A stretch of DNA of 20,402 nucleotides from a virus: the UHGV virus genome UHGV-0113240. One strand, 5' to 3'. Positions 2,660 to 18,713 of this stretch are shown here, piece after piece (the stretch's first letter is position 1; each line of letters starts with the position of its first letter). The translations under genes were made by a program, and so were the position numbers. Below the pieces are notes generated by a model, which saw only the letters and a program-made list of their open reading frames with translations, did no database searches and had not been told where the DNA came from.

Positions 2660-3364
2660 TCATTGATTCACTTCCTGCGGCGGTTCTGGTAGTGGTATCC
2701 AGAACAAGGCGTTCCCTAACCACGATAAAGTGCCGTCGCTCAACTCCACGTATTCCCCTTGCACCTGTCCTGCCATATACTCACCGTGCTTTGAATAAAT
2801 TAAAATCCAATCATCTTGAGCGGGCATTCGCTCACTACAGCTTATCCAACCATCCGGAGTTACCGGAGAGTTGCCGGGTTCTTTAATGTGCAAGCGAGGC
2901 TCACCATCTTTTGGCTCAGGCCACTGGCGCTCCATGTTGATCTTCAATTTATCTTCCATAGCAGCGGTAATTTCAGCATCGCTGATGCCAGCACGGCGCT
3001 GTGCATCCCACAACAGAAACTGCATATCAGCCCACTCGCTAAGATCGTCTGGTTCGGCTGCGGCTTCCAGTGCCTCTTTTGAGAGGTGTTTCAGTGGACC
3101 AATGGGGCCAACGCAGCCAAATGTGGAGTCAGACCATTTGGCATGCTCGTGGCGAATCTGTTCGCGTTCCAGCGATGCCAGCACAATTCGTGCCAGCTCA
3201 CGCACTACTTCCGGTGGCGCGTAACGGTCATTCAGGTCATCCCACAGGCGTAGCATGTTATCGCTACCAGGGTGAACATCCTCGTTAGTTCCGGCAAGCG
3301 CACTAATAACCTCATCGGCTGCCTCAATAATTTTCAGAGTTTGTTCTCTGGTAATAGTGGTCAT
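2660..3364 (-). CDS. DUF550 (dATP/dGTP pyrophosphohydrolase-like) / DUF551 fusion protein
   Basis: 234-aa ORF; N-terminal half resembles prophage MazG-like DUF550 proteins, C-terminal WISCSERMP...WIPLPEPP resembles DUF551; assignment from recalled family features. Confidence 0.55.
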   Translation of the reverse strand: MTTITREQTLKIIEAADEVISALAGTNEDVHPGSDNMLRLWDDLNDRYAPPEVVRELARIVLASLEREQIRHEHAKWSDSTFGCVGPIGPLKHLSKEALEAAAEPDDLSEWADMQFLLWDAQRRAGISDAEITAAMEDKLKINMERQWPEPKDGEPRLHIKEPGNSPVTPDGWISCSERMPAQDDWILIYSKHGEYMAGQVQGEYVELSDGTLSWLGNALFWIPLPEPPQEVNQ

Positions 3365-3570
3365 TTGTTAATCCTCAAAACTTTATGCCCAGGTGCAAAG
3401 GCACGCGTTTTGTCTTTGCTTATTCGCCAGCCATCCTTGCGCGCCTCTTTTGCACAGCCAGCCCATGACGTACCGATATACTCACCGAAGTCTGGCGTTT
3501 GATATTTACCATTTGTACACTGGCGACAATCACAGTAGAGATGCATGGTGTAACTTGCAGCAATAGCCAT
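3361..3570 (-). CDS. small Cys-rich hypothetical phage protein
   Basis: 69-aa ORF with AAGGAG 7 nt upstream of its ATG; stop overlaps the start of the downstream DUF550 gene (ATGA coupling). Confidence 0.5.
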   Translation of the reverse strand: MAIAASYTMHLYCDCRQCTNGKYQTPDFGEYIGTSWAGCAKEARKDGWRISKDKTRAFAPGHKVLRINK

Positions 3571-3571
3571 A

Positions 3572-3922
3572 TCAGGCTCCTTTAGTGCGCAAGTGGTTTT
3601 TCCAGCGGTTTTGCGCCGCGCTGGGCTTTTTGCAACAACTGTGACCCATCACCCCGCAACACCCCGTCAACCTCACTCGTCTGTTACTAATCCTCAACCA
3701 TCGCCAGACCCCTACACCGTTTCTGCGAGCTAACAGAATCTTTGCTTTACGGTTTTTCATCGTTTTGCTCTCCTGCGTCTCTTTGCTGCTCGTCGTGCCG
3801 CTGCAATACCGGTATGGCGGCGCTTTGGTGCCGGGATGATGCTGCCAGCCATCAGGACCTGTGGCTTTGCAATTAGCGCAGAAGCCCAAAAACGAGTCGG
3901 GTACGGTAACAAGCCGATACAT
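3572..3922 (-). CDS. hypothetical small basic Cys-containing protein (start uncertain: ATG 3922 or internal ATG 3760 with AGGAGAG upstream)
   Basis: Open frame between ea22-like stop and the 3361..3570 gene; internal start at 3760 has a good SD; composition (R/W/C-rich) also fits out-of-frame translation, so weak. Confidence 0.3.
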   Translation of the reverse strand: MYRLVTVPDSFLGFCANCKATGPDGWQHHPGTKAPPYRYCSGTTSSKETQESKTMKNRKAKILLARRNGVGVWRWLRISNRRVRLTGCCGVMGHSCCKKPSAAQNRWKNHLRTKGA

Positions 3923-3932
3923 GCCACACGCA

Positions 3933-4709
3933 CTACTCACCTCCTTTGATGCGAATGCCAGCGGCGCGCTCGGCTTCACTTTGTTCCCAAAACCACTTGT
4001 GAAGCGCCATAAGCTTTTCGTCAATCGGTGCATATTTGCGATTAAAGTAGGCCTGAGCATCTTTCTCAGATTCGTCCGGCAATTCGCCTGGGCCAAACAG
4101 TGTGTTATAAATCCATGCCAGTCCGCTCTTAGCGTCGCCAGTTGCCTGCCATTCGATAATGGCAGCCTGCATGACCAGAATGTTTTTCCCGATTAATAGG
4201 TCCAGTTCTTTGTACCGGTTGCGGATGTATGCATTCTCGCTTTGTAATTTTGCGTTGCGCTTTTCTGAGGCTTCAAGTAACGCCTGCTTATCGCGTAGCG
4301 CTTCTTCCAGTTCAGCAACATGGCATTCACTATCAATAAGGTTGTTCTCTGCTGCTTCCAGCTCAACACGCAGCTTCCCTACCGTTAACGCCATCTCCTC
4401 GTTCTCCTGGTCGCGGCGTTTGATGTATTGCTGGTTTCTTTCCAGCTCATCCAGCAGCGCCAAGACGGTAGCAGGATTGGCTGCGGCGATGAATTCAGCA
4501 TTGGCCTGCTGTTCCATTTGGAAATCTTCATCGAAACCGCTTTCTGGATGCGCTCCTTCAATTCTGCAAATAGGAATATATCCAGCAACTTCACGATGAA
4601 TTAGCGCATCATCACCATCAAATCGGCTCTCTCCATATTCGAGCGACCACTCACCACACGTTGCTTTTTCTGCCGCCTCACGCAGTGCCTGATAATTAAT
4701 TTCGCTCAC
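3933..4709 (-). CDS. Ead/Ea22-like protein
   Basis: 258-aa ORF with N-terminal MSEINYQALREAAEKATCGEW... and a central coiled-coil-like segment, as in lambdoid ead/Ea22-family proteins; lies in the b2/ea region between xis and exo. Confidence 0.6.
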   Translation of the reverse strand: MSEINYQALREAAEKATCGEWSLEYGESRFDGDDALIHREVAGYIPICRIEGAHPESGFDEDFQMEQQANAEFIAAANPATVLALLDELERNQQYIKRRDQENEEMALTVGKLRVELEAAENNLIDSECHVAELEEALRDKQALLEASEKRNAKLQSENAYIRNRYKELDLLIGKNILVMQAAIIEWQATGDAKSGLAWIYNTLFGPGELPDESEKDAQAYFNRKYAPIDEKLMALHKWFWEQSEAERAAGIRIKGGE

Positions 4710-4975: not shown

Positions 4976-5003
4976 GAATAATAAAAAAGGAGCCTGTAGC
5001 TCC
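4976..5003 (-). terminator. intrinsic terminator on the minus strand
   Basis: Minus-strand GGAGC-tacag-GCTCC hairpin followed by TTTTTTATTATT, 3' of the 5026..5241 ORF. Confidence 0.55.
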
Positions 5004-5025
5004 CTGATGATTTTGCTTTTCATGT

Positions 5026-5241: not shown

Positions 5242-5321
5242 TGAACAAGTCCCATGTCGGCAAGCATAAGCACACAGAATATGAAGCCCGCTGCCAGAAA
5301 AATGCATTCAGTGGTTGTCAT
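5238..5321 (-). CDS. 27-aa hydrophobic peptide (MTTTECIFLAAGFIFCVLMLADMGLVQ), not in the ORF track
   Basis: ATG 5321..5319 overlaps the TGA of the upstream ORF and its TGA overlaps the ATG of the downstream ORF (two ATGA junctions); 16-residue hydrophobic core. Confidence 0.35.
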   Translation of the reverse strand: MTTTECIFLAAGFIFCVLMLADMGLVQ

Positions 5322-5509
5322 ACCTGGTCTCTCTCATCTGCTTCTGCTTTCGCCACCATCATTTCCAGCTTTTGTGAAAGGGATGTGGCTAACGTATGAA
5401 ATTCTTCATCTGTTTCTACTGGTATTGGCACAAACCTGACTCCAATTTGAGCAAGGCTATGTGCCATCTCAATACTCGTTCTTAACTTAACAGGAGATGC
5501 TTTGTGCAT
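5318..5509 (-). CDS. lambda orf63-like small protein
   Basis: 63-aa ORF; position between exo and ea22 matches lambda orf63; recalled similarity. Confidence 0.5.
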   Translation of the reverse strand: MHKASPVKLRTSIEMAHSLAQIGVRFVPIPVETDEEFHTLATSLSQKLEMMVAKAEADERDQV

Positions 5510-5670
5510 ATCGCCTCCCGTTTATTATTCATCTCCTCAGCCAGCCGCTGTGCTTTCAGGGGATTTCGGATAACAGAAAGACCGGGAAATACCCAGCCTC
5601 GCTTTGTAACGGAGTAGACGAAAGTGATTGCGCCCACCCGGATATTATCGTGAGGATGCTTCATCGCCAT
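5482..5670 (-). CDS. lambda orf60a-like / DUF1317-like small protein
   Basis: 62-aa ORF immediately upstream of exo, overlapping exo's start region as in lambda. Confidence 0.5.
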
Positions 5671-6341
5671 TGCTCCCCAAATACAAAACCAATTTCAGCC
5701 AGTGCCTCGTCCATTCTTTCGATGAACTCCGGCACCATCTCGTCAAAACTCGCTATGTACTTTTCATCCCGCTCAACCACGACATAATGCAGTCCTTCAC
5801 GCTTCATACGCGGGTCATAGTTGGCAAAGTACCAGGCATCTTTTCGTGTCACCCACATGCTGTACTGCACCTGGGCCATGTAAGCCGACTTTATGGCCTC
5901 GAAACCACCGAGCCGGAACTTCATGAAATCCCGGGAGGTAAACGGGCATTTCAGCTCAAGGCCATTGCCGTCACTGCATAAACCATCGGGAGAGCAGGCG
6001 GTGCGCATACTTTCGTCGCGATAGATGATCGGGGATTCAGTAACATTCACGCCGGAAGTGAACTCAAACAGGGTTCTGGCGTCGTTCTCGTACTGTTTTC
6101 CCCAGGCCAGTGCTTTAGCGTTAACTTCCGGAGCCACACCGGTGCAAACCTCGGCAAGCAGGGTGTGGAAGTAGGACATTTTCATGTCAGGCCACTTCTT
6201 TCCGGAGCGGGGTTTTGCTATCACGTTGTGAACTTCTGAAGCGGTGATGACGCCGAGCCGTAATTTGTGCCACGCATCATCCCCCTGTTCGACAGCTCTC
6301 ACGTCGATCCCGGTACGCTGCAGTATAATGTCCGGTGTCAT
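5661..6341 (-). CDS. exo: lambda exonuclease (Red-alpha)
   Basis: 226-aa protein recalled as near-identical to phage lambda Exo ([38 protein letters not shown]...). Confidence 0.95.
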
Positions 6342-7123
6342 GCTGCCACCTTCTGCTCAGTGGCTTTCTGTTTCAGGAATCCAAGAGCTTTTACTGCTTC
6401 GGCCTGTGTCAGTTCTGACGATGCGCGAATGTCGCGGCGAAATATCTGGGAACAGAGCGGTAATAAGTCGTCATCCCATGTTTTATCCAGGGCGATCAGC
6501 AGAGTGTTAATCTCCTGCATGGTTTCATCGTTAACCGGAGTGATGTCGCGTTCCGGCTGACGTTCTGCAGTGTATGCGGTATTTTCGACAATGCGCTCGG
6601 CTTCATCCTTGTCATAGATACCAGCAAATCCGAAGGCCAGACGGGCACACTGAATCATGGCTTTATGCCGTAACATCCGTTTGGGATGCGACTGCCACGG
6701 CCCCGTGATTTCTCTGCCTTCACGGGTTTTGAATGGTTCGCGGCGGCATTCATCCATCCACTCGGTAACGCAGATCGGATGATTGCGGTCTTTGCGGTAA
6801 ATCCTGCATGTACATGATTCATTGTCCTGCTCAAAGTCCATGCCATCAAACTGCTGGTTTTCATTGATGATGCGGGACCAGCCATCAACGCCCACCACCG
6901 GAACGATGCCGTTCTGCTTATCAGGGAAGGCGTAAATTTCTTTCGTCCACGGATTAAGGCCGTACTGGTTGGCGACGATCAACAATGCGATGAACTGCGC
7001 ATCGCTGGCATCACCTTTAAATGCCGTCTGGCGAAGAGTGGTGATCAGTTCCTGTGGGTCGACAGAATCCATGCCGACACGTTCAGCCAGCTTCCCAGCC
7101 AGCGTTGCGAGTGCTGTACTCAT
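6338..7123 (-). CDS. bet: recombination protein Bet (Red-beta single-strand annealing protein)
   Basis: 261-aa protein recalled as near-identical to lambda Bet; stop overlaps the exo start. Confidence 0.95.
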
Positions 7124-7128
7124 CCGTT

Positions 7129-7425
7129 TTATACCTCTGAATCAATATCAACCTGGTGGTGAGCAATGGTTTCAACCATGTACCGGATGTGTTCTGCCAT
7201 GCGCTCCTGAAACTCAACATCGTCATCAAACGCACGGGTAATGGCTTTTTTGCTGGCCCCGTGGCGTTGCAAATGATCGATGCATAGCGATTCAAACAGG
7301 TGCTGGGGCAGGCCTTTTTCCATGTTGTCTGCCAGTTCTGCCTCTTTCTCTTCACGGGCGATCTGCTGGTAGTGACGCGCCCAACTCTGAGCCTCAAGAC
7401 GATCCTGAATGTAATAAGCGTTCAT
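7129..7425 (-). CDS. gam: host-nuclease (RecBCD) inhibitor Gam, short form
   Basis: 98-aa protein [21 protein letters not shown]... matching lambda GamS; the upstream in-frame extension is closed by TAA 16 codons before the ATG. Confidence 0.9.
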
Positions 7426-7479
7426 GGCTGACCTCCTGAAAATGGCTGTGAAAATATCGCCCGCGAAATGCCAGGCTGA

Positions 7480-7791
7480 TTAGGAAAACAGGAAAGGGGG
7501 GTAGTGATTCAGGCCGTTACCGCGTCCGTCGAGAAAAACTTCCACGAGCAAATCACGGGTATAAGTGCGCTCGATGCCGCGATGCAGATAAAGCCGTCCG
7601 CGTAAATTAGCTGATGCAGTCCAGGTACCATCTTTGTGTTTGACCAGCATTCCTGGCATGACCGCGCCGCGATTAACGGTCTGCGTTCCGTAATGTTGAT
7701 GAACCATAAAAACTCCTGCCCGTAAGCTGGGCTGCTGAACATATAGAGACTTCTGCGCGTATTCAGGCGGTGGATGGCCGCCGGTTGTCAT
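7480..7791 (-). CDS. hypothetical protein in the kil/cIII position (start uncertain)
   Basis: 103-aa ORF, the only ORF between the OL-like operators and gam; GAGG upstream of ATG 7791; no arginine-rich N-terminus, so not an obvious N homolog. Confidence 0.35.
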
Positions 7792-7984
7792 AACTAAGCC
7801 GCCTCGTTGAAGCGACTAAGGTATGAAATGTTGAGTTGATTTCAGCTGGTCACACCGACGTTCACGCGTCCGTTTCACCCCTCGCACTCCCCGGAGCCTG
7901 CTGAAATTCAAGCTGCGGATCTAAGCGGTCATCGCAACGGTGAATCAGGTGGTTGCCGTATCGTTGTGTTGTTGCGACATGGTG

Positions 7985-8035
7985 ATAATAGCTATTGCTA
8001 TTGGTGATATCAATACTTATTGCTATTGTTAGATG
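7985..8035 (-). promoter_or_regulatory. OL-like operator cluster / presumed leftward early promoter
   Basis: Repeated ATTGCTATTG motifs and a TATTGgtgatatCAATA palindrome; the same TTGCTATTG motif recurs in the cI-cro intergenic region. Confidence 0.45.
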
Positions 8036-8149
8036 TGTTTTGATATTAAATGTTTGATAGCAAAAAGAATTAATTTTGTGACTTGCATCGCATAGCGATA
8101 ACTGAAGGGAGGTTGTGGTGGTTTTTTGAACGGTTTGTGTGATGAGGGG

Positions 8150-8178
8150 AGGGCAAAAGAAAACCCGGCAAGGCCGGG
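8150..8178 (-). terminator. intrinsic terminator ending the cI-kinase-DUF3037 transcription unit (tIMM analog)
   Basis: CCCGGC-AAG-GCCGGG hairpin followed on the minus strand by TTTTCTTTT, 36 nt after the stop of the 8214..9041 gene. Confidence 0.6.
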
Positions 8179-8213
8179 TTGTTGATAAGGTATGTCACAT
8201 ACAATAATAAATT

Positions 8214-9041
8214 TTAGACTTGAGGAAGTATTTTTTTTGCAAAATCAATAGTTTCTTTGTGGCTGGATGCAGGTATATGATTTATTTTCTTAGCATCCAT
8301 AGTTCTCTTTATGATGTCAATAACTTTGCTTTGGCCTGAGTTTGGTGATTCAGGGGTTTCAATTGTGAATAGAATGTCATCAAGTGAAAGCAGGTTTTCT
8401 TCTGCTGCTCGAGTTATTCTCATCACCCAAGTATCACTATGCTCCATCATTTTTCCGGGTTCAGTTTGAGTGAATGCCAGAGGTTTGATGGCACATTGGA
8501 TCCTGTCGTGCTTCTTGGCGACCAATGGCATTGAGAACTTTGCGAAATACCCATCAATAGTTGCTTGTTTGAAGACGTTCTTCAATCCATCTATTCTATC
8601 GATACTGCGTTTTAGCTCTCTAGCTAGGACATCTTCACGGCGCTCTTTTGTGTAGTCAGCGTGGTTTACATATTTATTGTAAATGCGAGCCAACTCTTCT
8701 TTCGGGTTTTCACTGAGGATAACTCTCGTAGAGCTGAACTGAAAAATTGATTCTTTTTTGTTTGTAAAATATCTGAAGAATTGTGCAAGTTGTTGATGTC
8801 CAACAATCTGGGTAGCATGCATTTTTGCGAACTGGAGTTCTCTTTGTATTGAGTCTTTTGCTACGGGAAAAATGCAATCATCATGGAAGAAATTCTTTAC
8901 ACGAGAGTCATTTCGCTTTGTGAGCTGGAAGTCAAAGTAATTTTCTTTTGGCGCGCACAGAAGTACGCCTATGTTTGCGAACTCTTCAGTCTCCGCATAA
9001 GGCGCATAGCGAACGATGCTATATAGGCATGGAGTTGTCAT
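8214..9041 (-). CDS. DUF3037-like protein (start at ATG 9041, overlapping the upstream TGA)
   Basis: 275-aa ORF; N-terminal CLYSIVRYAPYAETEEFANIGVLL resembles the conserved N-terminal motif recalled for DUF3037; ATGA overlap with the kinase-like gene. Confidence 0.55.
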   Translation of the reverse strand: MTTPCLYSIVRYAPYAETEEFANIGVLLCAPKENYFDFQLTKRNDSRVKNFFHDDCIFPVAKDSIQRELQFAKMHATQIVGHQQLAQFFRYFTNKKESIFQFSSTRVILSENPKEELARIYNKYVNHADYTKERREDVLARELKRSIDRIDGLKNVFKQATIDGYFAKFSMPLVAKKHDRIQCAIKPLAFTQTEPGKMMEHSDTWVMRITRAAEENLLSLDDILFTIETPESPNSGQSKVIDIIKRTMDAKKINHIPASSHKETIDFAKKILPQV

Positions 9042-9790
9042 TCTATTGCGCTCCAAAATTCATCACAATCACCTTTGCCTAGCGTAGTGCAGACAAAAGG
9101 TAAAAACTCATCATCTACTATCCACTCCTCTGGAATTTCGTCAAGGATAGCAGGAAGTTTGTGTAAACTGTCAACGACCCTCTGGCGGTACTCTACGCGA
9201 TCCACTAAATCATACTGCCATTTGCGGTTACCCGGGCCGTACACGTGTACAGAAAAATCTTCAGGCCCAGCATTCTGATCAAATGATAGATTATGGTCAA
9301 TCAGATAATACTTATCGTTACTGATGTCATAAAGGATATTGACGTTTCCGCCTTTATCAGTAAGCGTTCTGTCTGCATTTAATATCCACTTATCAAAAGC
9401 ATAGATTAATTTTTGCTGTTCGACTGGGATGATCATTTCGTTTCTTGACTGCGTAAACGTTAACGCGATTGCACCGTCTATGAACAATGAAGCAAAAGCA
9501 TACCCTGTACAAATTTGTTGCTGCAGATCAGGTGTGTACTCTACAAGTTCCTCTGGTACAAATACGATTTTAAAGTCAGGTAAAGGAAGGCCGATATCAT
9601 TAGCCAGGCACGCCGAAATGAACTCAGCTAAGAGATTTTTCGGGGGCATTGATGGTTTAGATTTCAAAACATACAACTGCCCATCATCACATTTGCAAAG
9701 AAATGGCTGAGTGGAACCTTCATTGATGCGACGTATTACTTCAACGACATTAGGTATTGCACTACTGCTGCTTGCTTCGCGCTCCATCAC
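9038..9790 (-). CDS. atypical HipA / PI-kinase-like kinase-domain protein
   Basis: 250-aa ORF with LYVLK (candidate beta3 Lys), WILNADRTLTDKGGNVNIL (DRxxxxxxN-type catalytic loop) and YYLIDHNLSFD (DFG-like) motifs; directly downstream of cI. Confidence 0.5.
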   Translation of the reverse strand: MMEREASSSSAIPNVVEVIRRINEGSTQPFLCKCDDGQLYVLKSKPSMPPKNLLAEFISACLANDIGLPLPDFKIVFVPEELVEYTPDLQQQICTGYAFASLFIDGAIALTFTQSRNEMIIPVEQQKLIYAFDKWILNADRTLTDKGGNVNILYDISNDKYYLIDHNLSFDQNAGPEDFSVHVYGPGNRKWQYDLVDRVEYRQRVVDSLHKLPAILDEIPEEWIVDDEFLPFVCTTLGKGDCDEFWSAIE

Positions 9791-9925: not shown

Positions 9926-10618
9926 TTAACCATGCTTCCTGTACGTCTGAGGCATGCTCCCGATGACCTTACCGAAGATGAATACACGGTTCATCTCGTC
10001 TTTCTCGATTGGGTCCCATGGTGAATAGCTCTTGTTGTCAGAGATAACCAGCAGCTTATCCTTCATCATTTGAAGGCGCTTAACATGGGCCGTATCGTCG
10101 TAAAGGAACGCATAAATCCCGTCGCCGTCGAAAGATTTGATGGCGATATCGACGAACAGCAAGTCACCCGGTTCGATCGTTCCTGACATGCTGTCACCGC
10201 GTACGTTAATGATGCGGATATTTTCTGCCTTCCTGCCATCGAACATGTGACGAGCATCGTCAAACGAGTACTCAACAGAGCGCAGGACTTCTACAAACTC
10301 ACGGTTGATGACACCCGGCCCAGCACTGACTTCTATATCAAGAACGTCAATCTTGAAGTATTTGGAATGGTTGACAGTAGGCTTCCCTGATTGTTGACCG
10401 TCATTTCTCATCGGGCCTATGCCTGATGAGAGCCACTCTGTTCGAACACCCAATGCATTAGCTATTTCAACAATTTTTGTTGAGCCGCGCGCGTTGCCGC
10501 TTGTCAGTCTCCAGATTGTGGGTTGAGCTACGCCAGACGCCTTTGCAAGAGCGCCTTGAGACATTCCAGATTGTTCCATCGCTAGGTTTAAGCGATCAGC
10601 AAGAGTTTCTTTTTTCAT
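9926..10618 (-). CDS. cI: CI-type prophage repressor (HTH + S24 LexA-like autopeptidase domain)
   Basis: N-terminal HTH (SQGALAKASGVAQPTIWRL), C-terminal GDSMSGT Ser and KRL Lys of the S24 dyad; divergent from cro; start taken at ATG 10618 (tracked ORF starts at TTG 10654). Confidence 0.85.
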   Translation of the reverse strand: MKKETLADRLNLAMEQSGMSQGALAKASGVAQPTIWRLTSGNARGSTKIVEIANALGVRTEWLSSGIGPMRNDGQQSGKPTVNHSKYFKIDVLDIEVSAGPGVINREFVEVLRSVEYSFDDARHMFDGRKAENIRIINVRGDSMSGTIEPGDLLFVDIAIKSFDGDGIYAFLYDDTAHVKRLQMMKDKLLVISDNKSYSPWDPIEKDEMNRVFIFGKVIGSMPQTYRKHG

Positions 10619-10725
10619 AAGTTTTAATTTATACGCTTGCGTATTGATGGTCAAAACACGTTTTGCTATTGCTATGGTTAATACGCATTGCTATTATTTG
10701 TTTGTTGCAATACCAATAGGAATTA
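10619..10725. promoter_or_regulatory. OR-like operator region with divergent promoters
   Basis: 107-bp cI-cro intergenic region containing TTGCTATTGCTATGG, ATTGCTATTATT, CAATACCAATAGG and the palindrome ATACGCttGCGTAT. Confidence 0.5.
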
Positions 10726-10956
10726 ATGATGACAAATCAAACCATTCAACTCGCAATCAGTATTACAGGTAGTCAAAAACGACTGGCAGATCTATGCGGT
10801 GTAGCCCAGCCCACTGTTTGGCGTTGGCTACACGGTGGCGGAATTGATGCCCGCTATGTAATGAAAATTGTCTCAGCCACTGGTGGAAAGATTAAGCCAG
10901 CAGATATTCGTCCCGACCTCGCACCATTGTTTAACGCGAGTAATTCTGCCGCCTAA
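10726..10956 (+). CDS. cro: Cro-like HTH repressor
   Basis: 76-aa ORF divergent from cI; HTH QKRLADLCGVAQPTVWRW. Confidence 0.8.
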   Translation: MMTNQTIQLAISITGSQKRLADLCGVAQPTVWRWLHGGGIDARYVMKIVSATGGKIKPADIRPDLAPLFNASNSAA

Positions 10957-10980
10957 TCTGCGGCGTTAACTGATAAGGCA

Positions 10981-11526
10981 ATGATTATGCAACCACTTAC
11001 ATACCAACAGACTAGCGGATTTAGCCCGACTGCGGTGATAAATCGTTCTCAAACAAAACAAGCTCCAGGCCACGAAAAAATCCGTGATGCCGTCCGCGCC
11101 TGGTCGGCTGTAGATAATCAGGATGTCGTTGCCGCACTCATTGTGAATGAGTATCGGGAGCAGGGCGGCGGCACCATCGATTTCCCTGATGATGTCAGCC
11201 GTGCACGCCAGAAGCTGTTCCGCTTCCTCGATAACAAATTCGATTCTGAAAAATACCGAAATAACGTGCGTGAACTGACCCCGGCAATTCTGGCGGTACT
11301 ACCGCTGGAATATCGCGGTTACCTGGTTGAGCAGGATAGCTTCATGGCTAGGTTGGCTGAAATGGAAAAGGAACTCAGTGAGGCAAAACAGGCTGTCATT
11401 CTCAACGCACCACGCCACCAGAAACTGAAGGAAATTAGTGAAGGTATTGTGTCGATGTTTCGTGTGGACCCAGATCTGGCTGGTCCATTGATGGCGATGG
11501 TTACTACCATGCTGGGGGCGATATGA
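10981..11526 (+). CDS. YdaT/CII-like regulatory protein
   Basis: 181-aa ORF in the cII position between cro and O; recalled resemblance to Rac YdaT-family proteins (NEYREQGGG segment). Confidence 0.45.
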   Translation: MIMQPLTYQQTSGFSPTAVINRSQTKQAPGHEKIRDAVRAWSAVDNQDVVAALIVNEYREQGGGTIDFPDDVSRARQKLFRFLDNKFDSEKYRNNVRELTPAILAVLPLEYRGYLVEQDSFMARLAEMEKELSEAKQAVILNAPRHQKLKEISEGIVSMFRVDPDLAGPLMAMVTTMLGAI

Positions 11527-11612
11527 CAGGTTCAGAAATGGCGAAAGCCGGTCTGCTGGAACAGAACCGACTTTCAGGTGCAAATCGTAACACACTCATT
11601 GCGGGAGGAATT

Positions 11613-12542
11613 ATGGCAAACACTGCTGAGATATTCAATTTTCCAGTGCCGGATGCGGCACAAAAGGAGCCGCGCGTGGCAGATCTCGATGATGGTTATA
11701 CGCGCATTGCAAATGAGTTGCTGGAAGCTGTGATGCTGGCCGGATTAACACAGCACCAGCTTCTGGTCTTCCTAGCTGTCATGCGCAAAACATATGGCTT
11801 TAATAAAAAACTGGATTGGGTGAGCAACGAGCAACTGTCCGAATTGACCGGGATATTGCCGCACAAGTGTTCTGCTGCAAAAAGCGTTCTGGTAAAGCGT
11901 GGGATTCTTATTCAGAGCGGGCGGAATATCGGCATTAATAATGTGGTCAGTGAATGGTCAACATTACCCGAATCAGGTAAGAAAAATAAAGTTTACCTGA
12001 AAGAGGTAAATTTACCTGAATCAGGTAAGAAAAGTTTACCCAAATCAGGTAAAGGCACTTACCCGAATCAGGTAAACACAAAAGACAAACTAACAAAAGA
12101 CAATATAAAACCTTTTTCGTCCGAGAATTCTGACGAATCCTCTGACCAGCCAGAAAATGCCCTTCCTGTGGTGAAACCGGATGCTGCGATTCAGAGCGGC
12201 AGCAAGTGGGGGACAGCAGAAGACCTGACCGCCGCAGAGTGGATGTTTGACATGGTGAAGACCATCGCGCCATCAGCCAGAAAACCGAATTTTGCAGGGT
12301 GGGCTAACGATATCCGCCTGATGCGTGAACGTGACGGACGTAACCACCGCGACATGTGCGTGCTGTTCCGCTGGGCATGCCAGGACAACTTCTGGTCCGG
12401 TAACGTGCTAAGTCCGGCCAAACTCCGCGACAAGTGGACCCAACTCGAAATCAACCGTAACAAGCAACAGGCTGGCGTGACAGCCGGAAAATCAAAACTC
12501 GACCTGACGAACACTGACTGGATTTACGGGGTGGAGCTATGA
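11613..12542 (+). CDS. O: replication initiator O (start at ATG 11613 after GGGAGGAA; tracked ORF begins 11523)
   Basis: N-terminus MANTAEIFNF...VADLDDGYTRIANELLEA...LLVFLAVMRKTYGFNK matches the lambda O DNA-binding domain; iterons inside the gene; stop overlaps the P start. Confidence 0.85.
   Translation: MANTAEIFNFPVPDAAQKEPRVADLDDGYTRIANELLEAVMLAGLTQHQLLVFLAVMRKTYGFNKKLDWVSNEQLSELTGILPHKCSAAKSVLVKRGILIQSGRNIGINNVVSEWSTLPESGKKNKVYLKEVNLPESGKKSLPKSGKGTYPNQVNTKDKLTKDNIKPFSSENSDESSDQPENALPVVKPDAAIQSGSKWGTAEDLTAAEWMFDMVKTIAPSARKPNFAGWANDIRLMRERDGRNHRDMCVLFRWACQDNFWSGNVLSPAKLRDKWTQLEINRNKQQAGVTAGKSKLDLTNTDWIYGVEL
11968..12077. repeat. origin-of-replication iterons inside O, followed by an A-rich tract
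   Basis: Four copies of ttaCCnGAATCAGGTAAg plus one degenerate copy at about 24-bp spacing, then ACACAAAAGACAAACTAACAAAAGACAATATAAAAC. Confidence 0.75.
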
Positions 12543-13228
12543 AAAACATCGCCGCACAGATAGTTAATTTTGACCGTGAGCAGATGCGCCGGATCGCCAA
12601 TAACATGCCGGAACAGTACGACGAAAAGCCGCAGGTACAGCAGGTAGCGCAGATTATCAATGGTGTGTTCCGCCAGTTACTGGCAACTTTCCCGGCGAGC
12701 GTGGCTAACCGGGACCAGAACGAACTGAACGAAATCCGCCGCCAGTGGGTTCTGGCTTTCCGGGAAAACGGGATCACCACAATGGAACAGGTTAACGCTG
12801 GAATGCGCGTAGCCCGTCGGCAGAATCGACCATTCCTGCCATCACCCGGGCAGTTTGTCGCCTGGTGCCGGGAAGAAGCATCCGTTACCGCCGGGCTGCC
12901 AAACGCCAGCGAGCTGGTTGATATGGTTTACGAGTATTGCCGGAAGCGCGGGCTGTATCCGGATGCAGAGTCTTATCCGTGGAAATCAAACGCGCACTAC
13001 TGGCTGGTTACCAACCTGTATCAGAACATGCGGGCCAATGCGTTGACTGACGCGGAATTACGGCGCAAGGCTGCCGATGAACTGTCCTGTATGACCGCAC
13101 GAATTAACCGTGGTGAGGCTATACCTGAACCAGTAAAACAACTTCCTGTCATGGGCGGTAGACCTCTAAATCGTGCACAGGCTCTGGCGAAGATCGCAGA
13201 AATCAAAGCTAAGTTTGGGCTGAAATGA
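12539..13228 (+). CDS. P: replication protein P (DnaB helicase loader)
   Basis: 229-aa protein recalled as near-identical to lambda P (MKNIAAQ.VNFDREQMRRIANNMPEQYDEKPQVQQ...). Confidence 0.95.
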   Translation: MKNIAAQIVNFDREQMRRIANNMPEQYDEKPQVQQVAQIINGVFRQLLATFPASVANRDQNELNEIRRQWVLAFRENGITTMEQVNAGMRVARRQNRPFLPSPGQFVAWCREEASVTAGLPNASELVDMVYEYCRKRGLYPDAESYPWKSNAHYWLVTNLYQNMRANALTDAELRRKAADELSCMTARINRGEAIPEPVKQLPVMGGRPLNRAQALAKIAEIKAKFGLK

Positions 13229-13530
13229 GCAAGGGTATGACGGGCAAAGAGGCAATTATTCATTACCTGGGGACTCATAAGAAATTCTGTGCGCAGGACG
13301 TTGCCGCGGTAACAGGCGCAACGGTAACCAGCATAAATCAGGCTGCGGCTAAAATGGCGCGGGCAGGAATCCTGGTCGTTGATGGTAAGGTCTGGCGAAC
13401 GGTGTATTATCGGTTCGCTACCAGAGAAGAACGGGAAGGAAAGGTGAGCACGAATTTGATTTTTAAGGAGTGTCGCCAGAGTGCCGCGATGAAGCGGGTG
13501 TTGGCGGTATATGGGAGGACTACAGCATAA
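13225..13530 (+). CDS. ren: Ren protein (start may be the internal ATG at 13237)
   Basis: Sequence MTGKEAIIHYLGTH...VTGATVTSINQAAAKMARAG...VYYRFATREEREGK matches lambda Ren; immediately follows P. Confidence 0.85.
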   Translation: MSKGMTGKEAIIHYLGTHKKFCAQDVAAVTGATVTSINQAAAKMARAGILVVDGKVWRTVYYRFATREEREGKVSTNLIFKECRQSAAMKRVLAVYGRTTA

Positions 13531-14007
13531 GCATAACTTATGGATTATATGGAAAACTGGTAATTATGCTCTTTTCTTATGAAAATAAAGAGAAGTTTTC
13601 GCTGGCGTTTTATTTCTTCTGTTTTTTCTTGCGGGTTATTCTGATTTGTTTTGATTTGATTTTTTCTGACAAAAGTAGGGAAAAAATATGTCGCAAGTAC
13701 TTTCTGTCTTTACCTCCTAAATTACATTCTCTATCAAATGTTGCCATAGTTATGACCCCAGTTTTATATAGTGTTTCAGCAATTTTTCTGTAGTTTTTTT
13801 CTCGCAAAATTGAAGAGTTTTTCTTTGCTGTATTTTCAAGGCTATCTCCTTGTGGTTTAAGACTATTTGGGCCAAAAAACGTTGTGGATACTGCTGCACT
13901 TGTTGTCCGTTTTTTTTGGCCCATTTGGATAGTACTTGGGAGAGGCATGATTTTAATACGCATATAAATAACTCCTCTATCAATTGGATTTTGGGAAAAT
14001 GTTAACA

Positions 14008-14325
14008 TTAATCATGATTAAGGAGTAATTTTAAATCTTCCAATAAAATTTGTTTAAACTCTTGTGTTCTATGATCGATATACAACGCAAGTTTGCTTGC
14101 ATTATCTTCCAGGTCACGTATCTCTCTGTCACCTCGAATAAACCCAACTAAATTTAAACGTTTAGATAGTTCAGAACTTCCTTCTATGGCATCTTGGAGT
14201 ATTTGAATGATTTCTGAATTCATTGAGCGCCCGTTTCGTTTGGCTCGTTCAGCTATAGCTTCACGCATCCCATCAGGGAAACGGAGGTTAAACTTATCGT
14301 AGTCTTTTACTTGTTTGTCAGCCAT
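14008..14325 (-). CDS. Mnt/Arc-family ribbon-helix-helix repressor (start at ATG 14325)
   Basis: 105-aa ORF MADKQVKDYDKFNLRFPDGMREAIAERAKRNGRSMNSEIIQILQDAI with an RHH N-terminus; GGGGG SD; divergent from a second RHH gene. Confidence 0.6.
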   Translation of the reverse strand: MADKQVKDYDKFNLRFPDGMREAIAERAKRNGRSMNSEIIQILQDAIEGSSELSKRLNLVGFIRGDREIRDLEDNASKLALYIDHRTQEFKQILLEDLKLLLNHD

Positions 14326-14345
14326 TGAACCCCCCAAAAAAATGA

Positions 14346-14401
14346 ATGGTGCCATATTGCCACATCAATTCAATGGTGGCATTATGGCCTCATGGTGTCA
14401 T
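14346..14401. promoter_or_regulatory. candidate operator: three direct repeats of ATGGTGNCAT between the divergent RHH genes
   Basis: ATGGTGCCAT (14346), ATGGTGGCAT (14373), ATGGTGTCAT (14392) at 27- and 19-bp spacing. Confidence 0.4.
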
Positions 14402-14424
14402 TGTGGCCTCATGAGGTTATGTCA

Positions 14425-14583
14425 ATGGAAAAGAAAGAGGTAAAAATTACCCTTCGCTATCCGCAAAAAGTGAAGGATGAATTCAAGCGAATTGCTCAGG
14501 AGGAAGGGATGTCTGAGAACGCAGCTATTGTTCAGGCGCTTGTATGGGCATTGAAATTTAGAACACGGATACATGCTCGCTAG
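14425..14583 (+). CDS. Arc-like ribbon-helix-helix repressor (52 aa; start at ATG 14425)
   Basis: MEKKEVKITLRYPQKVKDEFKRIAQEEGMSENAAIVQALV has the RHH pattern and P22 Arc-like size; GAGG 8 nt upstream; directly precedes an antirepressor-like gene. Confidence 0.55.
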   Translation: MEKKEVKITLRYPQKVKDEFKRIAQEEGMSENAAIVQALVWALKFRTRIHAR

Positions 14584-14653
14584 AAACAGCGAAGCCCCAC
14601 TGGCGGCAACCTTAGGGGCTTCTATCGAAAATAACCGCGAAGGAAATATCGAC

Positions 14654-15322
14654 ATGAGTATTGTAGCAACATCAGATCTGAACTTCCAAGGTGAAGCACT
14701 AGTGCCAGTGGCAAATATTGCCGGAATATGGCTAACTTCATCCAACCTAGCAAGAGCACTGAAGTATTCGAATAGTCGCGCAGTCACGATGATTTACAAC
14801 AAATATGCTGACGAATTTTCCAGTAGTATGACTAGAGTGCTTGAAGTCAGTACCTTAGAGAATGATGTCGAGGTACTTGATCTGAGTACCTCGAAAAGTA
14901 CTCGAAACTTGAAGAAGAAAGTACGCGTTTTCTCTCTCCGCGGAGCCCATTTGATCGCCATGTTCGCCCGCACTCCTGTAGCCAAAGAGTTCCGCCGTTG
15001 GGTTCTGGATATTCTCGATCGAGAAGTTCAACAATCCCCAATCATAAAACAATTCACTGATAACGAACTTTGCACACTTGCTTGGTTGTGGCGAGCTGGG
15101 GATGCGATGTTAACCGCCTGCCAGAACGTTACTCCTCTTCTTCAGGTTGCGGAGCATCGTGAAGCTGGTCGCTTCACTTCTATCGAGCAAGAATATCCCC
15201 AGATACTCAATAAGGCACAGGCAATCCTTGCCAGAGAAACGGCACATGTAAAATTCCGGCCGTGGCAGGATGATAAGTGGAGTCGAGTTTTGCCGCATTT
15301 ACGTTCGGATCGATTACAGTAG
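14654..15322 (+). CDS. Bro-N domain antirepressor-like protein (start at ATG 14654 after AAGGAA)
   Basis: RVFSLRGAHLIAMFARTPVAKEFRRWVLDIL matches the conserved Bro-N/antirepressor N-domain signature; follows the arc-like gene as in P22 immI. Confidence 0.6.
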   Translation: MSIVATSDLNFQGEALVPVANIAGIWLTSSNLARALKYSNSRAVTMIYNKYADEFSSSMTRVLEVSTLENDVEVLDLSTSKSTRNLKKKVRVFSLRGAHLIAMFARTPVAKEFRRWVLDILDREVQQSPIIKQFTDNELCTLAWLWRAGDAMLTACQNVTPLLQVAEHREAGRFTSIEQEYPQILNKAQAILARETAHVKFRPWQDDKWSRVLPHLRSDRLQ

Positions 15323-15783
15323 ATTCCAATTAACAATGAGAAACACATAGCCACCCCGTGGTATTGAAACCATATAATGTTGGATTTGAAAACAGATCTT
15401 TTTCCATGTATTAATAACTACATCCCCGCGAGTGATTCAAAAAGGAGGGCCCAATTTTGTCCGAGTTTTTGTATTCCCCCGCATGCCGCTGCGGAGCACT
15501 ACATCTGAGTGTCTGACTAGGGGATAAAATTAGACTGGATAGTGAGAAGAAAGTGGCGTGCTAGGCTGTGCCGAGTGCTACCAGTACACCCTGGGGGTGT
15601 GCAGCTTTCGCCGAGACTGTAGTGGGTATCGGTTAATGCACGAAAAACCGAGAGGTCAGACAACCAATTTGCCGTAGGATTGTTTCCGGTGCGATACCGG
15701 TGTACTAACTGAAAGCAATGCGAAAAAGCATAAACTCGGTCCTTCAGTCGCCCTACACACTATTTACTAAGAAGGGCTAAAGC

Positions 15784-16140
15784 ATGGATACAATTATCAC
15801 ATGGATGGGAGATCGTCTGTTGGGGTGGATAACAAACAAATCCGATCTGCGGCAGAGGGCAATCACTGGATTAACTCCTGCGATTTGTTCAACAATTTTA
15901 TATACTGAAAAATTAAAACGTGGTGAGCCTAATAACCCAAACGAAGAAGAAAAACTTTATAGGCTTTGGTATGAAGCGTCTTCCCAAGTCGTAGACTTTG
16001 ATCGAGAGCTGGCTAAAAGATGTTTAGATAAATCAGAATATTGGCTTCATTCTGAATTATATAGCCCTGAGAAAGTTGAAGAGCTAAACATTTCTTTGGT
16101 TGGTATGAAGGCAATGCTTGAAGGAATAAAGCACAATTAA
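15784..16140 (+). CDS. hypothetical protein (orphan, no recognised family)
   Basis: 118-aa ORF with AAGAAGGG SD; preceded by about 460 bp without any tracked ORF. Confidence 0.4.
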   Translation: MDTIITWMGDRLLGWITNKSDLRQRAITGLTPAICSTILYTEKLKRGEPNNPNEEEKLYRLWYEASSQVVDFDRELAKRCLDKSEYWLHSELYSPEKVEELNISLVGMKAMLEGIKHN

Positions 16141-16327
16141 AACCTTTGATTTGCGATAATCAACTCGCCATAATCATGTCATCGGAGCCTGAACAACTCC
16201 GGTGACTTCTGCGCTAAACGGGGACGTTTATGCGCACACACAATCCAAACTCTCTTCTCCCTCCGCAGATGCAGAAATGCACCTGCGATATATTGTATCC
16301 AGCGTTTCACCTCTACGGAGGTGAAGC

Positions 16328-16783
16328 GTGAACCTCCCACAAGATGGTATCAAATTGCATCGCGGTAACTTCACCGCTATCGGTCGGCAGATCCAGCCTT
16401 ATCTGGAGGACGGCAAATGCTTTCGCATGGTGCTTAAACCGTGGCGCGAGAGACGCAGTCTTTCCCAGAATGCACTCAGCCACATGTGGTACAGCGAAAT
16501 CAGTGAATACCTCATCAGCAAGGGTAAAACGTTCGCCACTCCAGCTTGGGTAAAAGATGCTCTCAAACACACATATCTCGGTTATGAAACCAAAGACCTG
16601 GTTGATGTCGTAACCGGTGATATCACCACTATCCAGTCGTTACGCCATACCTCCGATCTTGATACCGGAGAGATGTATGTCTTCCTCTGTAAGGTTGAAG
16701 CCTGGGCGATGAATATTGGCTGCCACCTGACTATTCCGCAGAGCTGCGAGTTCCAGCAGCTCCGCGACAAGCAGGAGGCGTAA
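16328..16783 (+). CDS. ybcN: YbcN-like protein (DLP12-type nin region)
   Basis: 151-aa ORF, GTG start 4 nt after GGAGGTGA; recalled near-identity to E. coli DLP12 YbcN. Confidence 0.75.
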
Positions 16784-16953
16784 TGGCTACACCGCTTATT
16801 CGTGTCATGAACGGACACATCTACAGAGTACCAAATCGTCGTAAGCGTAAACCTGAGCTGAAGCCTTCCGAAATACCAACACTGCTCGGATATACCGCCA
16901 GCCTGGTTGATAAAAAATGGTTGCGACTGGCAGCAAGGAGGAATCATGGCTGA
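16783..16953 (+). CDS. ninE: NinE-like protein (not in ORF track, 56 aa)
   Basis: ATG overlaps the ybcN stop (TAATG); [56 protein letters not shown] resembles lambda/DLP12 NinE. Confidence 0.65.
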   Translation: MATPLIRVMNGHIYRVPNRRKRKPELKPSEIPTLLGYTASLVDKKWLRLAARRNHG

Positions 16954-17236
16954 TTTGAGAAAAGCAGCGCGTGGTCGGGAATGCCAGGTAAGAATCCCTG
17001 GCGTATGTAATGGCAACCCTGAAACGTCTGTACTGGCACATATCCGGCTGGCTGGATTGTGCGGCACCGGTATTAAACCGCCAGACCTGATTGCCACCAT
17101 TGCATGTTCTGCCTGTCACGATGAGATCGACCGTCGCACGAATTTTGTTAACGCTGGATATGCAAAAGAATGCGCGCTGGAAGGTATGGCGAGAACGCAG
17201 GTTATCTGGCTGAAAGAGGGGGTAATTAAGGCGTGA
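16946..17236 (+). CDS. ybcO: YbcO-like (DUF1364) protein
   Basis: 96-aa ORF from internal ATG ([28 protein letters not shown]...); recalled near-identity to DLP12 YbcO; overlaps ninE end and rusA start. Confidence 0.75.
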
Positions 17237-17595
17237 ATACTTACCACATCACACTACCCTGGCCGCCGAGCAATAACCGCTACTACCGCCATAATCGCGG
17301 GCGCACACACATCAGCGCAGAAGGGCAGGCATACCGCGATAACGTCACCCGAATCATTAAAAACGCAATGCTGGATATCGGCCTGGCTATGCCAGTGAAA
17401 ATCCGTATTGAGTGCCACATGCCGGATCGCCGTCGCCGTGACCTGGATAATCTGCAAAAAGCCGCTTTTGACGCACTCACCAAAGCAGGTTTCTGGCTGG
17501 ATGATGCTCAGGTCGTTGATTACCGCGTTGTGAAGATGCCTGTTACCAAAGGTGGGAGGCTGGAACTGACCATCACCGAAATGGGGAATGAATGA
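17233..17595 (+). CDS. rusA: Holliday-junction resolvase RusA
   Basis: 120-aa protein [25 protein letters not shown]... recalled as near-identical to E. coli RusA. Confidence 0.9.
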
Positions 17596-17732
17596 TGTTT
17601 GAGTTTTATATGGCAGAACTTCTTCGCCACCGCTGGGGGCGTCTGCGCTTATATCGTTTCCCCGGTTCTGTTTTGACCGATTACCGGATACTGAAGAATT
17701 ACGCCAAAACACTGAAAGGAGCTGCCGCATGA
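17592..17732 (+). CDS. ylcG: YlcG-like small protein (not in ORF track, 46 aa)
   Basis: [46 protein letters not shown]; ATGA overlaps with rusA stop and with the next gene's start. Confidence 0.6.
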
Positions 17733-18418
17733 ATACCCAATATTTACAGTATGTCCGCGAGCAACTCATTGTGGCTACTGCTGATTTGGGCGGAGCAACG
17801 AAAGGCCAGCTTGAAGCCTGGCTGGAGCATGCACAATTTGATACTGGTACATATAAACGAAAGAAGCCGCGCATTATGGATGAGGTAACGGGCAAGATGA
17901 TTACGCTGGATAATCCGCCGATTTCCGGTAAGCAGTCGTACGCAAAAGGTTCATCCATTGCACTGGTCAGCCAGGTTGAGTTCTCAACATCTTCATGGCG
18001 CCGCGCGGTTCTGTCTCTCGAAGAACATCAGAAAGCGTGGTTGCTGTGGAGTTACAGCGAAAGTGTTCGCTGGGAACATCAGGTCACCATAACGCAGTGG
18101 GTATGGAGCGAGTTTAAGACTCTGTTGGGTACCAGGAAAATTGCAGGTAAGACACTGGAACGTTTGAAGAAGTTGATCTGGCTGGCGGCACAGGATGTGA
18201 AGAACGAGCTGGCAGGGCGTAAGACCTATGAATACCAGGAGCTGGCATTACTGGCGGGAGTGACAACTAAAAACTGGTCCAAAACATTTACTCGTCACTG
18301 GGTTGCAATGAAACACATTTTTCACCGACTGGATAGTGAGGCTTTATTGTTTGTAATGAGAACACGTTCAAAACAAAAGGTGGCATTTTCAAAGCAAAGT
18401 GTTGCAAAAGTAGATTGA
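17729..18418 (+). CDS. late-gene antiterminator Q-like protein
   Basis: 229-aa ORF in the canonical Q position: after rusA/ylcG and immediately before a promoter-like stretch plus strong intrinsic terminator (pR'-tR' arrangement); family assignment by position, not sequence. Confidence 0.55.
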   Translation: MNTQYLQYVREQLIVATADLGGATKGQLEAWLEHAQFDTGTYKRKKPRIMDEVTGKMITLDNPPISGKQSYAKGSSIALVSQVEFSTSSWRRAVLSLEEHQKAWLLWSYSESVRWEHQVTITQWVWSEFKTLLGTRKIAGKTLERLKKLIWLAAQDVKNELAGRKTYEYQELALLAGVTTKNWSKTFTRHWVAMKHIFHRLDSEALLFVMRTRSKQKVAFSKQSVAKVD

Positions 18419-18628: not shown

Positions 18629-18704
18629 GGCCCTTTAGCTCAGTGGTGAGAGCGAGCGACTCATAATCGCCAGGTCGCTGGTTCAAATCCAGCAAGGGCC
18701 ACCA
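18629..18704 (+). tRNA. ileZ: tRNA-Ile2 (anticodon CAU, lysidine type; could alternatively read as Met)
   Basis: 76-nt cloverleaf: acceptor GGCCCTT/AAGGGCC, anticodon loop CUCAUAA, T-loop GGTTCAAATCC, 3' ACCA; recalled close match to E. coli ileX-type tRNA. Confidence 0.8.
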
Positions 18705-18713
18705 TATCACATA

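Follow-up and report, generated by a model that had tools for sequence, protein, structure and literature searches.

The early-left operon considered here lies in the virus genome UHGV-0113240, a stretch of 20,402 nucleotides (nt) that was analysed at its full length (hereafter, the window) and that is the early region of a lambdoid prophage. Between its OL-type operators and gam, neither an N-like gene nor an RNA of the put family was found. The interval is occupied by a leader of ~270 nt, which contains a conserved two-hairpin RNA element, and by a kil gene of the KilR type. This layout is the normal one of a widespread, viable lineage of Escherichia coli phages and is already in public records. 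On balance, it seems probable that N and its target terminators are both absent, and that kil, gam, bet and exo would need no early antiterminator.

In lambda, the genes N, sieB, ral, ea10, cIII and kil lie between pL and gam, and N is needed for transcription to go past the early terminators. The N/nut system of lambda and the put RNA of HK022 are the two textbook routes past lambdoid early terminators.

Search for N and for put RNA

No protein of the N family was detected with PHROGs and Pfam among the ~40 open reading frames (ORFs) of the window that were tested, including the one of 103 amino acids (aa) located between the operators and gam, and an arginine-rich mini-ORF upstream of it. 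The complete RefSeq genome of the closely related phage 4A7 contains an annotated Q-like antiterminator and no N-like one, the annotation vocabulary used for it being one that labels lambda N as N-like. In the kil-gam region, the annotations of the nearest phages include only Kil and Gam. The original prediction that no N-like gene lies between the operators and gam was thus borne out, as Kil alone was found there, with no PHROG or Pfam match to N. On the other hand, its suggestion that N could be encoded elsewhere received no support from either the window ORFs or the annotation of 4A7.

Another suggestion had been an N-independent mechanism resembling HK022 put. Put sequences were collected from IMG/VR by a pattern derived from HK022 putL, HK022 putR and HK639 putL, and 22 of them were aligned to give the covariance model R1, which scored 99, 77 and 93 bits, respectively, on the three references. 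In the window, the best R1 score was 7.4 bits (E 1.2, filters off), outside the leader. Across the 4A7 genome, the best one was 12.8 bits (E 0.16), within structural genes and not significant, and nothing significant was found in Perceval, PhiR5_1, EC958 or the O157 prophage. The blastn searches with HK022 putL, HK022 putR and HK639 putL were also empty, and a put-like RNA was rejected. So, the apparent independence from N stood, while membership in the put family did not. In addition, no repeat common to the pL leader and the pR transcript was found and, therefore, there is no nutL/nutR or putL/putR pair. In 7400-8250, no Rfam 15 family was detected either, the best score (16.8 bits versus a gathering threshold of 35) being at chance level also when permissive thresholds were applied. 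A put-like mechanism is the default guess in the field for lambdoid phages lacking N (PMC12315714); judged by sequence comparison, that guess is wrong for this lineage.

Put RNAs themselves are common. More than 120 viral contigs of IMG/VR match the strict put pattern, often with putL and putR on one contig, and put stem II covaries clearly, as in GGGAGCGC/GCUGCUC, GGACCAUA/UUAUGGC and GGACGCCC/GGUGCG (loci L117-L236).

Terminator content of the early transcripts

The minus strand from pL to exo (7978-5661) was found to contain only weak hairpins (7558, 7476 and 7005) and no credible intrinsic terminator. Similarly, the plus strand from pR to Q (10704-17729) contained only 5-base-pair (bp) hairpins with three GC pairs (14087, 16270 and 17637). 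The gap between cro and cII is 24 nt long and leaves no intergenic room for tR1. Since there is no credible intrinsic terminator from pL to exo or from pR to Q, no tR1 region, and none before the two-hairpin element, an early antiterminator would not be needed. The first sizeable terminator-like hairpin downstream of pL (Table 1) is at what we take to be the place of lambda tL3.

Spread of the layout

The nearest phages are the Bievrevirus 4A7, 4C10 and Perceval, plus PhiR68_2, PhiR5_1 and others, with 92-98% identity across the region, and the identical arrangement occurs in at least 15 sequenced free phages. Among Bievrevirus phages that were isolated by their plaques, the layout is conserved with 92-99% identity. 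Of 5426 complete E. coli genomes, 2231 (41%) contain the leader, including ST131 EC958 and an O157 strain, most copies showing at least 95% identity and carrying no PGAP feature. The control region is the standard one of an N-less lambdoid lineage composed of Bievrevirus and many E. coli prophages with cro and cII of the YdaS/YdaT type. The description of the early-left operon as unusually compact, given in the original prediction, is correct as to its compactness but not as to its being unusual, because this is the ordinary layout of a very common lineage. No paper was found on the mechanism by which this N-less lineage manages.

The kil gene, its junction with gam and the pL-like promoter

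On the minus strand from 7985 to 7425, the sole ORF of at least 40 aa that matches a family is that of 103 aa (7480-7791), in keeping with the single ORF predicted between OL and gam. It aligns to Kil (phrog_294, E 1e-38; aa 20-96 on profile positions 4-80 of 83) and not to an N family. Its identity to Rac KilR is 36% (E 2e-12), and 21 columns are invariant across six Kil homologues. The mechanical ORF reaches up to ATG 7791. The PGAP/RefSeq homologues (HK225, HK639, KO-TP1 and E. coli prophages) are 68 aa long and start at the ATG equivalent to 7707, and the in-frame sequence upstream of this ATG is not conserved in other genera. It is likely, from these comparisons, that kil starts at ATG 7707 and codes for 75 aa. 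The window Kil exceeds most homologues in length owing to a TAC (Tyr) in place of the usual stop codon, which adds YPPFLFS to the protein; this longer form is present in many IMG/VR prophages. With kil starting at ATG 7707, the leader is ~270 nt long and not ~190 nt as previously estimated. Rac KilR inhibits FtsZ and cell division (PMC5793797, PMC12482147), and the window Kil is predicted to be an inhibitor of the same type.

A TAA codon at 7482-7480, the same that serves as the stop of kil, is in frame with the gam ATG at 7425. This upstream stop, together with the 97% identity to the lambda region, indicates that the 98-aa product is the short form of Gam, the only one encoded, as had been predicted; its match to phrog_259 is full-length. 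The DNA of 5313-7507 is 97% identical to lambda 31000-33193, and the homology ends abruptly at 7507. The statement that the 103-aa ORF lacks an arginine-rich N-terminus is correct for that ORF, though an arginine-rich mini-ORF lies 25 codons upstream in the same frame.

The transcript of these genes is predicted to start at ~7978 from a promoter whose 10/12 match, on its own, is of the kind found by chance once per 1 kb. It is called pL because of the operator repeats, its place downstream of cI, the onset of homology and the terminator at 8180-8162. Eight of the 11 window matches to the motif TTGCTATTG (with at most one mismatch) fall in two places, three here (7989, 7995 and 8020) and five beside cro (10663-10722), and 8019-8043 is an inverted copy of 10651-10675. 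Homology to phages and prophages of different immunity starts at ~7977, coinciding with the predicted transcript start. The OL-like repeats predicted upstream of gam are thus present, at 7989-8043, together with a leftward promoter and with copies beside cro.

The two-hairpin RNA element

The element formed by two hairpins in the leader is single-copy in the window according to model R2. Hairpin A (7826-7788) has a variable, covarying stem, the base of which pairs CAUA with UAUG and sequesters AUG 7791, whereas hairpin B (7782-7766, GGCGG-CCAUCCA-CCGCC) is nearly invariant. Also invariant are the CAUA/UAUG pairing, with AUG 7791, and a GAG on the 3′ side of the loop. The folding z-score was -4.17, with none of 200 shuffles being as stable. 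On 65 distinct sequences, 97.9% of the cells were paired and nine of the 15 pairs of hairpin A were changed on both sides. The covariation score was 0.368, versus a shuffled mean of 0.134, no shuffle out of 500 reaching the observed value and slid registers giving at most 0.08; it is to be read considering that the 65-sequence alignment was fitted to model R2 itself.

The element recurs in phi80 (just after the gene annotated as N), HK225, HK639, KO-TP1, several species-representative genomes and dozens of IMG/VR contigs. It was not found in lambda 31000-39000, the stretch from pL to past N. Concerning its surroundings, 75 of the 83 copies outside the window type follow a GC hairpin with a run of at least five T within 16 nt, and another six are directly behind the 3′ end of putL, while the window-type element has neither a terminator nor putL in front. 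In those other phages, the delayed-early left genes begin at the element, and the polymerase must be carried past the terminator by N or put. It is the most concrete new item of this work, a widespread motif at the head of lambdoid delayed-early left genes, with no family match in Rfam 15 and no description in the literature searched.

The small ORF that starts at AUG 7791 (MTTGGHPPP...) was considered as a conserved protein and rejected, as the nucleotide conservation is owed to hairpin B. The linker shows 3 synonymous versus 7 non-synonymous changes, and indels of 1 or 2 nt after the AUG shift the frame in variants. Because of these indels, the conserved feature is RNA or DNA rather than a peptide.

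Anatomy of the leader

The inverted repeat formerly pointed out in the leader corresponds to a perfect 7-bp stem (7932-7938/7971-7977) located at the very start of the transcript. By folding energy, this stem does not stand out (z -1.1), and 7978-7930 is C-rich (C/G ratio 1.6). In the O157-type variant, the first ~35 nt of the leader are swapped for another sequence. The N-less prophages of Citrobacter, Kluyvera, Leclercia, Enterobacter and other genera open their pL transcript with a similar CA-rich hairpin, and their leaders from pL to kil span just ~85-100 nt. The segment 7929-7830 is known from E. coli only. In 25 species-representative loci of other genera, no diverged homologues of the 150-nt segment 7978-7830 were found. 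The segment folds no better than shuffles (z ~0), a result that is uninformative for or against a functional RNA because genuine put RNAs are equally unremarkable (z -0.7 to +0.3).

Within the 5′ stem-loop, 7940-7975 of the minus strand (CAACAACACAAC) includes the R1 target consensus of GcvB, CACAAC(A), as well as a pair of neighbouring AAC triplets in agreement with the A-R-N pattern of Hfq binding. It could be a site of interaction with GcvB or Hfq, a translational-enhancer-like element or a Rho-binding element. An AgvB-type anti-small RNA (anti-sRNA) for this sequence was rejected, as AgvB maps downstream of PR′ and not at pL (PMC4104026). The Pas sRNAs, unrelated in position, were also rejected.

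At the other end of the leader, 7762-7708 constitutes the 5′ untranslated region (UTR) of kil and resembles a motif found ahead of kil in other genera. In the N-less prophages of other Enterobacteriaceae (L013-L028), the stretch that separates pL from the first gene includes AACGUUCCGCYRGCCNGGCGAYAAGG, ~100 nt before kil (e.g. L019:3410-3500), and the sequence at 7740-7713 of the window, GUUCAGCAGCCCAGCUUACGGGCAGGAG, looks related to it.

The arginine-rich mini-ORF overlaps the middle of the leader. It has possible starts at TTG 7911, GTG 7887 and GTG 7878, the latter with GGAG 8 nt upstream and replaced by ATG in 7 of 48 unique variants. Its stop codon TAG is CAG in 32 of the 48 unique related leaders, so the window carries the minority allele (16/48). 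In the CAG allele, a single open frame runs from 7920 via hairpins A and B into kil, and the Kil of Perceval is annotated with 139 aa because of this fusion. The motif KRTRERR belongs to a putative ORF of 20-31 aa that in most alleles is fused to Kil. A coding test was run on the polymorphisms of 84 related sequences. The common ones gave, in the frame of the mini-ORF, 6 synonymous and 4 non-synonymous changes versus 2/8 in each other frame; with all polymorphisms, the result was 8/9 versus 7/9 in another frame, the kil control giving 22/8. The mini-ORF showed no PHROG, Pfam or N-family homologue, and a protein-database search with the read-through ORF was discarded, its only matches being sporadic calls at this very E. 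coli locus. Translation of the mini-ORF is possible.

Interpretation of the early-left operon

From the gene identities, the absence of N and put, the conservation and the covarying structure, we infer the following course of events. Transcription would start from pL at ~7978, pass through the leader of ~270 nt, in which no ORF has a demonstrable product, and enter kil, gam, bet and exo directly. In place of the lambda block N-sieB-ral-ea10-cIII-kil, there would be the leader plus a KilR-type kil, the terminator overcome by N being lost together with N. The early genes would then be reached without a dedicated processive antiterminator, and only the Q-type late antitermination would be retained.

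The job of the leader would be the control of kil rather than antitermination. Its C-rich, untranslated 5′ part could allow Rho/NusG to damp leaky transcription into the toxic kil; the silencing of kilR in the study by Cardinale is said to occur through Rho-dependent termination. Hairpin A, by sequestering the invariant AUG and the GAG, might have a role in regulating translation, or the processing of the RNA, where the delayed-early genes begin. The leader is seen mainly as a control region of kil because of what is known of Rac, where kilR is silenced via NusG and has a 5′ UTR sRNA. In PMC5793797, which credits a 2008 paper by Cardinale with the role of NusG in the suppression of toxic genes acquired horizontally, Rac kilR is described as kept silent through NusG, and its 5′ UTR yields the regulatory sRNA KilS (PMC8175672).

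Several points weigh against this interpretation. The tL3-like hairpin at 5600-5578 and the terminator at 5005-4987 precede the DksA-like, Ea22-like and xis-like genes, and beyond 5600 a read-through device or internal promoters may be needed. Rho-dependent terminators are invisible to the terminator scan, and the untranslated leader could itself be a Rho target. In six IMG/VR loci with five distinct upstream contexts, putL fills the slot of the 150-nt leader segment, which by analogy hints that this slot is used for antitermination devices. Besides, the unremarkable z-score of 7978-7830 leaves a functional RNA possible, as genuine put RNAs score alike.

Alternative explanations

A rather unlikely proposal is that 7978-7830, which occupies the place that putL or N has in related phages, is a third, undescribed lambdoid device for early antitermination, acting either as a cis-acting RNA or through an arginine-rich mini-N of 20-31 aa. 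The former version, an RNA put-like in function, unrelated to put in sequence, that would modify the RNA polymerase leaving pL, is the less doubtful of the two, although it is itself unlikely. The order pL, putL, two-hairpin element of the six IMG/VR loci provides a positional analogy for it, and a drawing with two stem-loops (7918-7891 and 7879-7848) is possible for the segment, whose common polymorphisms are wobble changes or fall at unpaired positions. It also agrees with the onset, at the transcript start, of the homology among phages of different immunity, with the presence of terminators further down the left operon, and with put-like action having been guessed already for N-less lambdoid phages (PMC12315714). 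However, the lack of put similarity by blastn and covariance model and the absence of a second copy downstream of pR are contrary to it. All copies are at least 95% identical, with neighbouring genes equally conserved, and the search for diverged homologues was empty; the segment is absent from the N-less prophages of other genera, and another sequence takes the place of its first ~35 nt in the O157-type variant. Its z-score of ~0 is also adverse, though the test is powerless.

The second version is that the mini-ORF (M-KRTRERRCDQLK...) is translated as a minimal N-like, RNA-binding antiterminator or regulator, which the more frequent CAG allele would join in frame to Kil. Similar to KRTRERR are the arginine-rich motifs TRRRERR (lambda N) and TRRHERRR (P22 gp24), as well as an N-like ORF of locus L027 that reads MDAQARRRERR, and the motif is at the N-terminus of an ORF placed where phi80 has N. 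The GGAG before GTG 7878, the ATG variants of this codon and the ratio of synonymous changes among common polymorphisms (6/4 versus 2/8) point in the same direction. But this ratio fades when all polymorphisms are taken into account (8/9 versus 7/9, far from the 22/8 of kil), the TAG/CAG polymorphism at the end is hard to square with a defined product, and neither a PHROG or Pfam match nor a homologue past the sporadic calls of the same locus was found. No boxA/boxB-type partner is repeated in the pR operon, the mini-ORF is absent from the N-less relatives in other genera, and Arg codons arise easily by chance in G-rich RNA. Taken together, the mini-N seems quite improbable.

Slightly less credible still is an N analogue diverged beyond detection and encoded elsewhere, be it by one of the small unknown ORFs in the early-left and nin regions or by DNA beyond the window. 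Short length and great divergence are typical of N proteins, the 'N' of phi80 has no obvious arginine-rich N-terminus, and the window has ORFs without assigned function at 13610-14008, 15784-16140, 3361-3570 and 3572-4096. Nevertheless, an early antiterminator must be made ahead of the first terminator and, to our knowledge, all known ones adjoin pL or pR. No candidate occurs between pL and kil or between pR and O, no nut-like repeat is common to both early transcripts, and none is annotated in the complete 4A7 genome.

Finally, the original prediction mentioned a defective phage. A derivative with N and the adjoining genes deleted could be suggested by a region far shorter than that of lambda, with lambda homology stopping abruptly at 7507, but it is refuted by the same layout in at least 15 free phages and 41% of complete E. 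coli genomes, and by the inducible Bievrevirus prophages 4C10 and 4A7, which have been titrated as plaques with counts of plaque-forming units (bioRxiv 10.64898/2026.05.26.727859).

Features of the window and neighbouring genes

The coordinates of the features are summarized in Table 1. On the plus strand, cII is followed by O, P, ren, the nin region and a Q-like antiterminator gene (17729-18418).

Table 1. Coordinates of the features of the early-left operon and its surroundings in the window.
Feature	Positions	Strand	Remarks
Intrinsic terminator after the orf61 homologue	4987-5005	minus	Good; 8-bp stem, then TTTTTTATTATT
First sizeable terminator-like hairpin downstream of pL	5578-5600	minus	In the lambda-homologous orf60a region
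exo	5661-6341	minus	
bet	6338-7123	minus	
gam, short form, 98 aa	7129-7425	minus	phrog_259, E 4e-60, profile positions 1-98 of 98
kil, KilR-type, 75 aa	7480-7707	minus	Likely start ATG 7707; ribosome-binding site AGGAG 7717-7713, 5 nt upstream
Early-left leader, ~270 nt	7708-7978	minus	No annotated gene
Conserved two-hairpin RNA element	7763-7829	minus	Model R2, 88.4 bits, E 3.5e-21
Arginine-rich mini-ORF	7816-7911	minus	...VKRTRERRCDQLK...; reads M-KRTRERRCDQLKSTQHFIP; stop TAG 7818-7816; same frame as the 103-aa ORF
5′-terminal stem	7932-7977	minus	7 bp, UCGCAAC/GUUGCGA, around a C/A-rich loop (CAACAACACAAC...)
pL-like promoter	7985-8013	minus	-35 TTGATA 8013-8008, 17-bp spacer, -10 TATTAT 7990-7985; 10/12 sigma-70 consensus matches
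OL-type operator repeats	7989-8043		TTGCTATTG motif, common to the OR region 10651-10722
Intrinsic terminator of the cI/HipA_2/DUF3037 transcript	8162-8180	minus	Just upstream of pL; 8 pairs, 6 GC, T-rich tail
Two-gene block between cI and pL	8214-9056 and 9038-9790	minus	
cI-type repressor gene	9926-10654		
YdaS-type cro	10726-10956	plus	
YdaT-type cII	10981-11526	plus	

The two-gene block at 8214-9790, in the position of lambda rexA/rexB, encodes a HipA_2-type kinase (PF20613, E 2e-76) and a DUF3037 protein (E 8e-24). The pair is probably a toxin/defence moron expressed in the lysogen, and in the PhiR5_1 record a HipA/HipD pair is annotated at the same position (8739-9488 and 7915-8742).

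Downstream of Q, there are three tRNA genes (18629-18877) and the prophage sRNA STnc100 (18990-19199, 155 bits), behind which the opposite strand has a convergent terminator-like hairpin (19219-19203). The same arrangement has been described for the PR′ moron site in prophages of enterohaemorrhagic E. coli. In the nin region, 13610-15322 is a P22 immI-like module consisting of two leftward genes (one of them Arc-like, 14008-14355), a small Arc-like ORF (14392-14583) and the anti-repressor gene ant (14573-15322).

Among the early-left genes, that at 2660-3364 (minus strand) joins a dATP/dGTP pyrophosphohydrolase domain (PF04447, E 4e-42) with DUF551. The integrase ORF (519-1922) is on the plus strand, and converges on and overlaps the excisionase-like gene of the minus strand (1919-2119); because of this orientation, and unlike in lambda, int is outside the pL transcript.

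Significance and comparison with known systems

Neither N/nut nor put is present in this lineage, which ~40% of complete E. coli genomes carry, among them those of ST131 and O157 strains. If the preferred reading is true, i.e. if no early antiterminator is needed, the N module would be dispensable in nature once its target terminators are absent too, and the completeness of prophages should be judged differently, since the absence of N would not be a defect. If, on the contrary, the leader carries a device, it would represent a new class of processive antiterminator. Either way, the leader is expected to control, in a great number of clinical strains, both the Red recombination genes and a toxic inhibitor of FtsZ. 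The two-hairpin element, in turn, is a concrete RNA motif common to phages that use N, put or neither.

The window resembles lambda pL-nutL-N-tL1 in that the operon is beside cI/OL, with a leftward promoter and repeated operators, and keeps Q-type late antitermination; the gam-bet-exo module is also shared, with 97% identity. It differs from lambda in lacking N, a nutL/nutR pair, tL1, sieB, ral, ea10 and cIII, and in that the 47-aa kil of lambda is replaced by an unrelated, KilR-type kil. In the laboratory, lambda derivatives such as nin5 and byp have made N dispensable by removal or bypass of the terminators. Those are mutants of an N-dependent phage, while the N-less, terminator-poor layout described here is the natural state of a widespread lineage.

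HK022 and HK639 are also lambdoid phages without N that have a non-coding RNA segment directly downstream of pL, and HK639, like many put phages, has the same two-hairpin element and a KilR-type kil in its left operon. Unlike them, the window has no member of the put family and no rightward copy of the segment, nor a counterpart of HK022 Nun.

The kilR locus of Rac shares with the window the Kil family, the YdaS/YdaT-type cro/cII neighbours, a regulatory RNA region upstream of kil and the absence of an annotated N. However, in Rac the repressor gene and kilR are separated by ydaG, ydaF and sieB, and the place of bet-exo is taken by recET. An identity of the leader with the Rac sRNA KilS was considered and rejected, as the Rac leader/KilS is not homologous to either the window leader or the two-hairpin element.

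Concerning phi80 (X13065), its left-operon genes are preceded by the same two-hairpin element (67.5 bits), and its cII is of a related type. OL and the element are separated there by a 98-aa gene annotated as N and, next, a terminator-like hairpin with a T-run; where phi80 has this N plus terminator, the window has the 150-nt leader segment.

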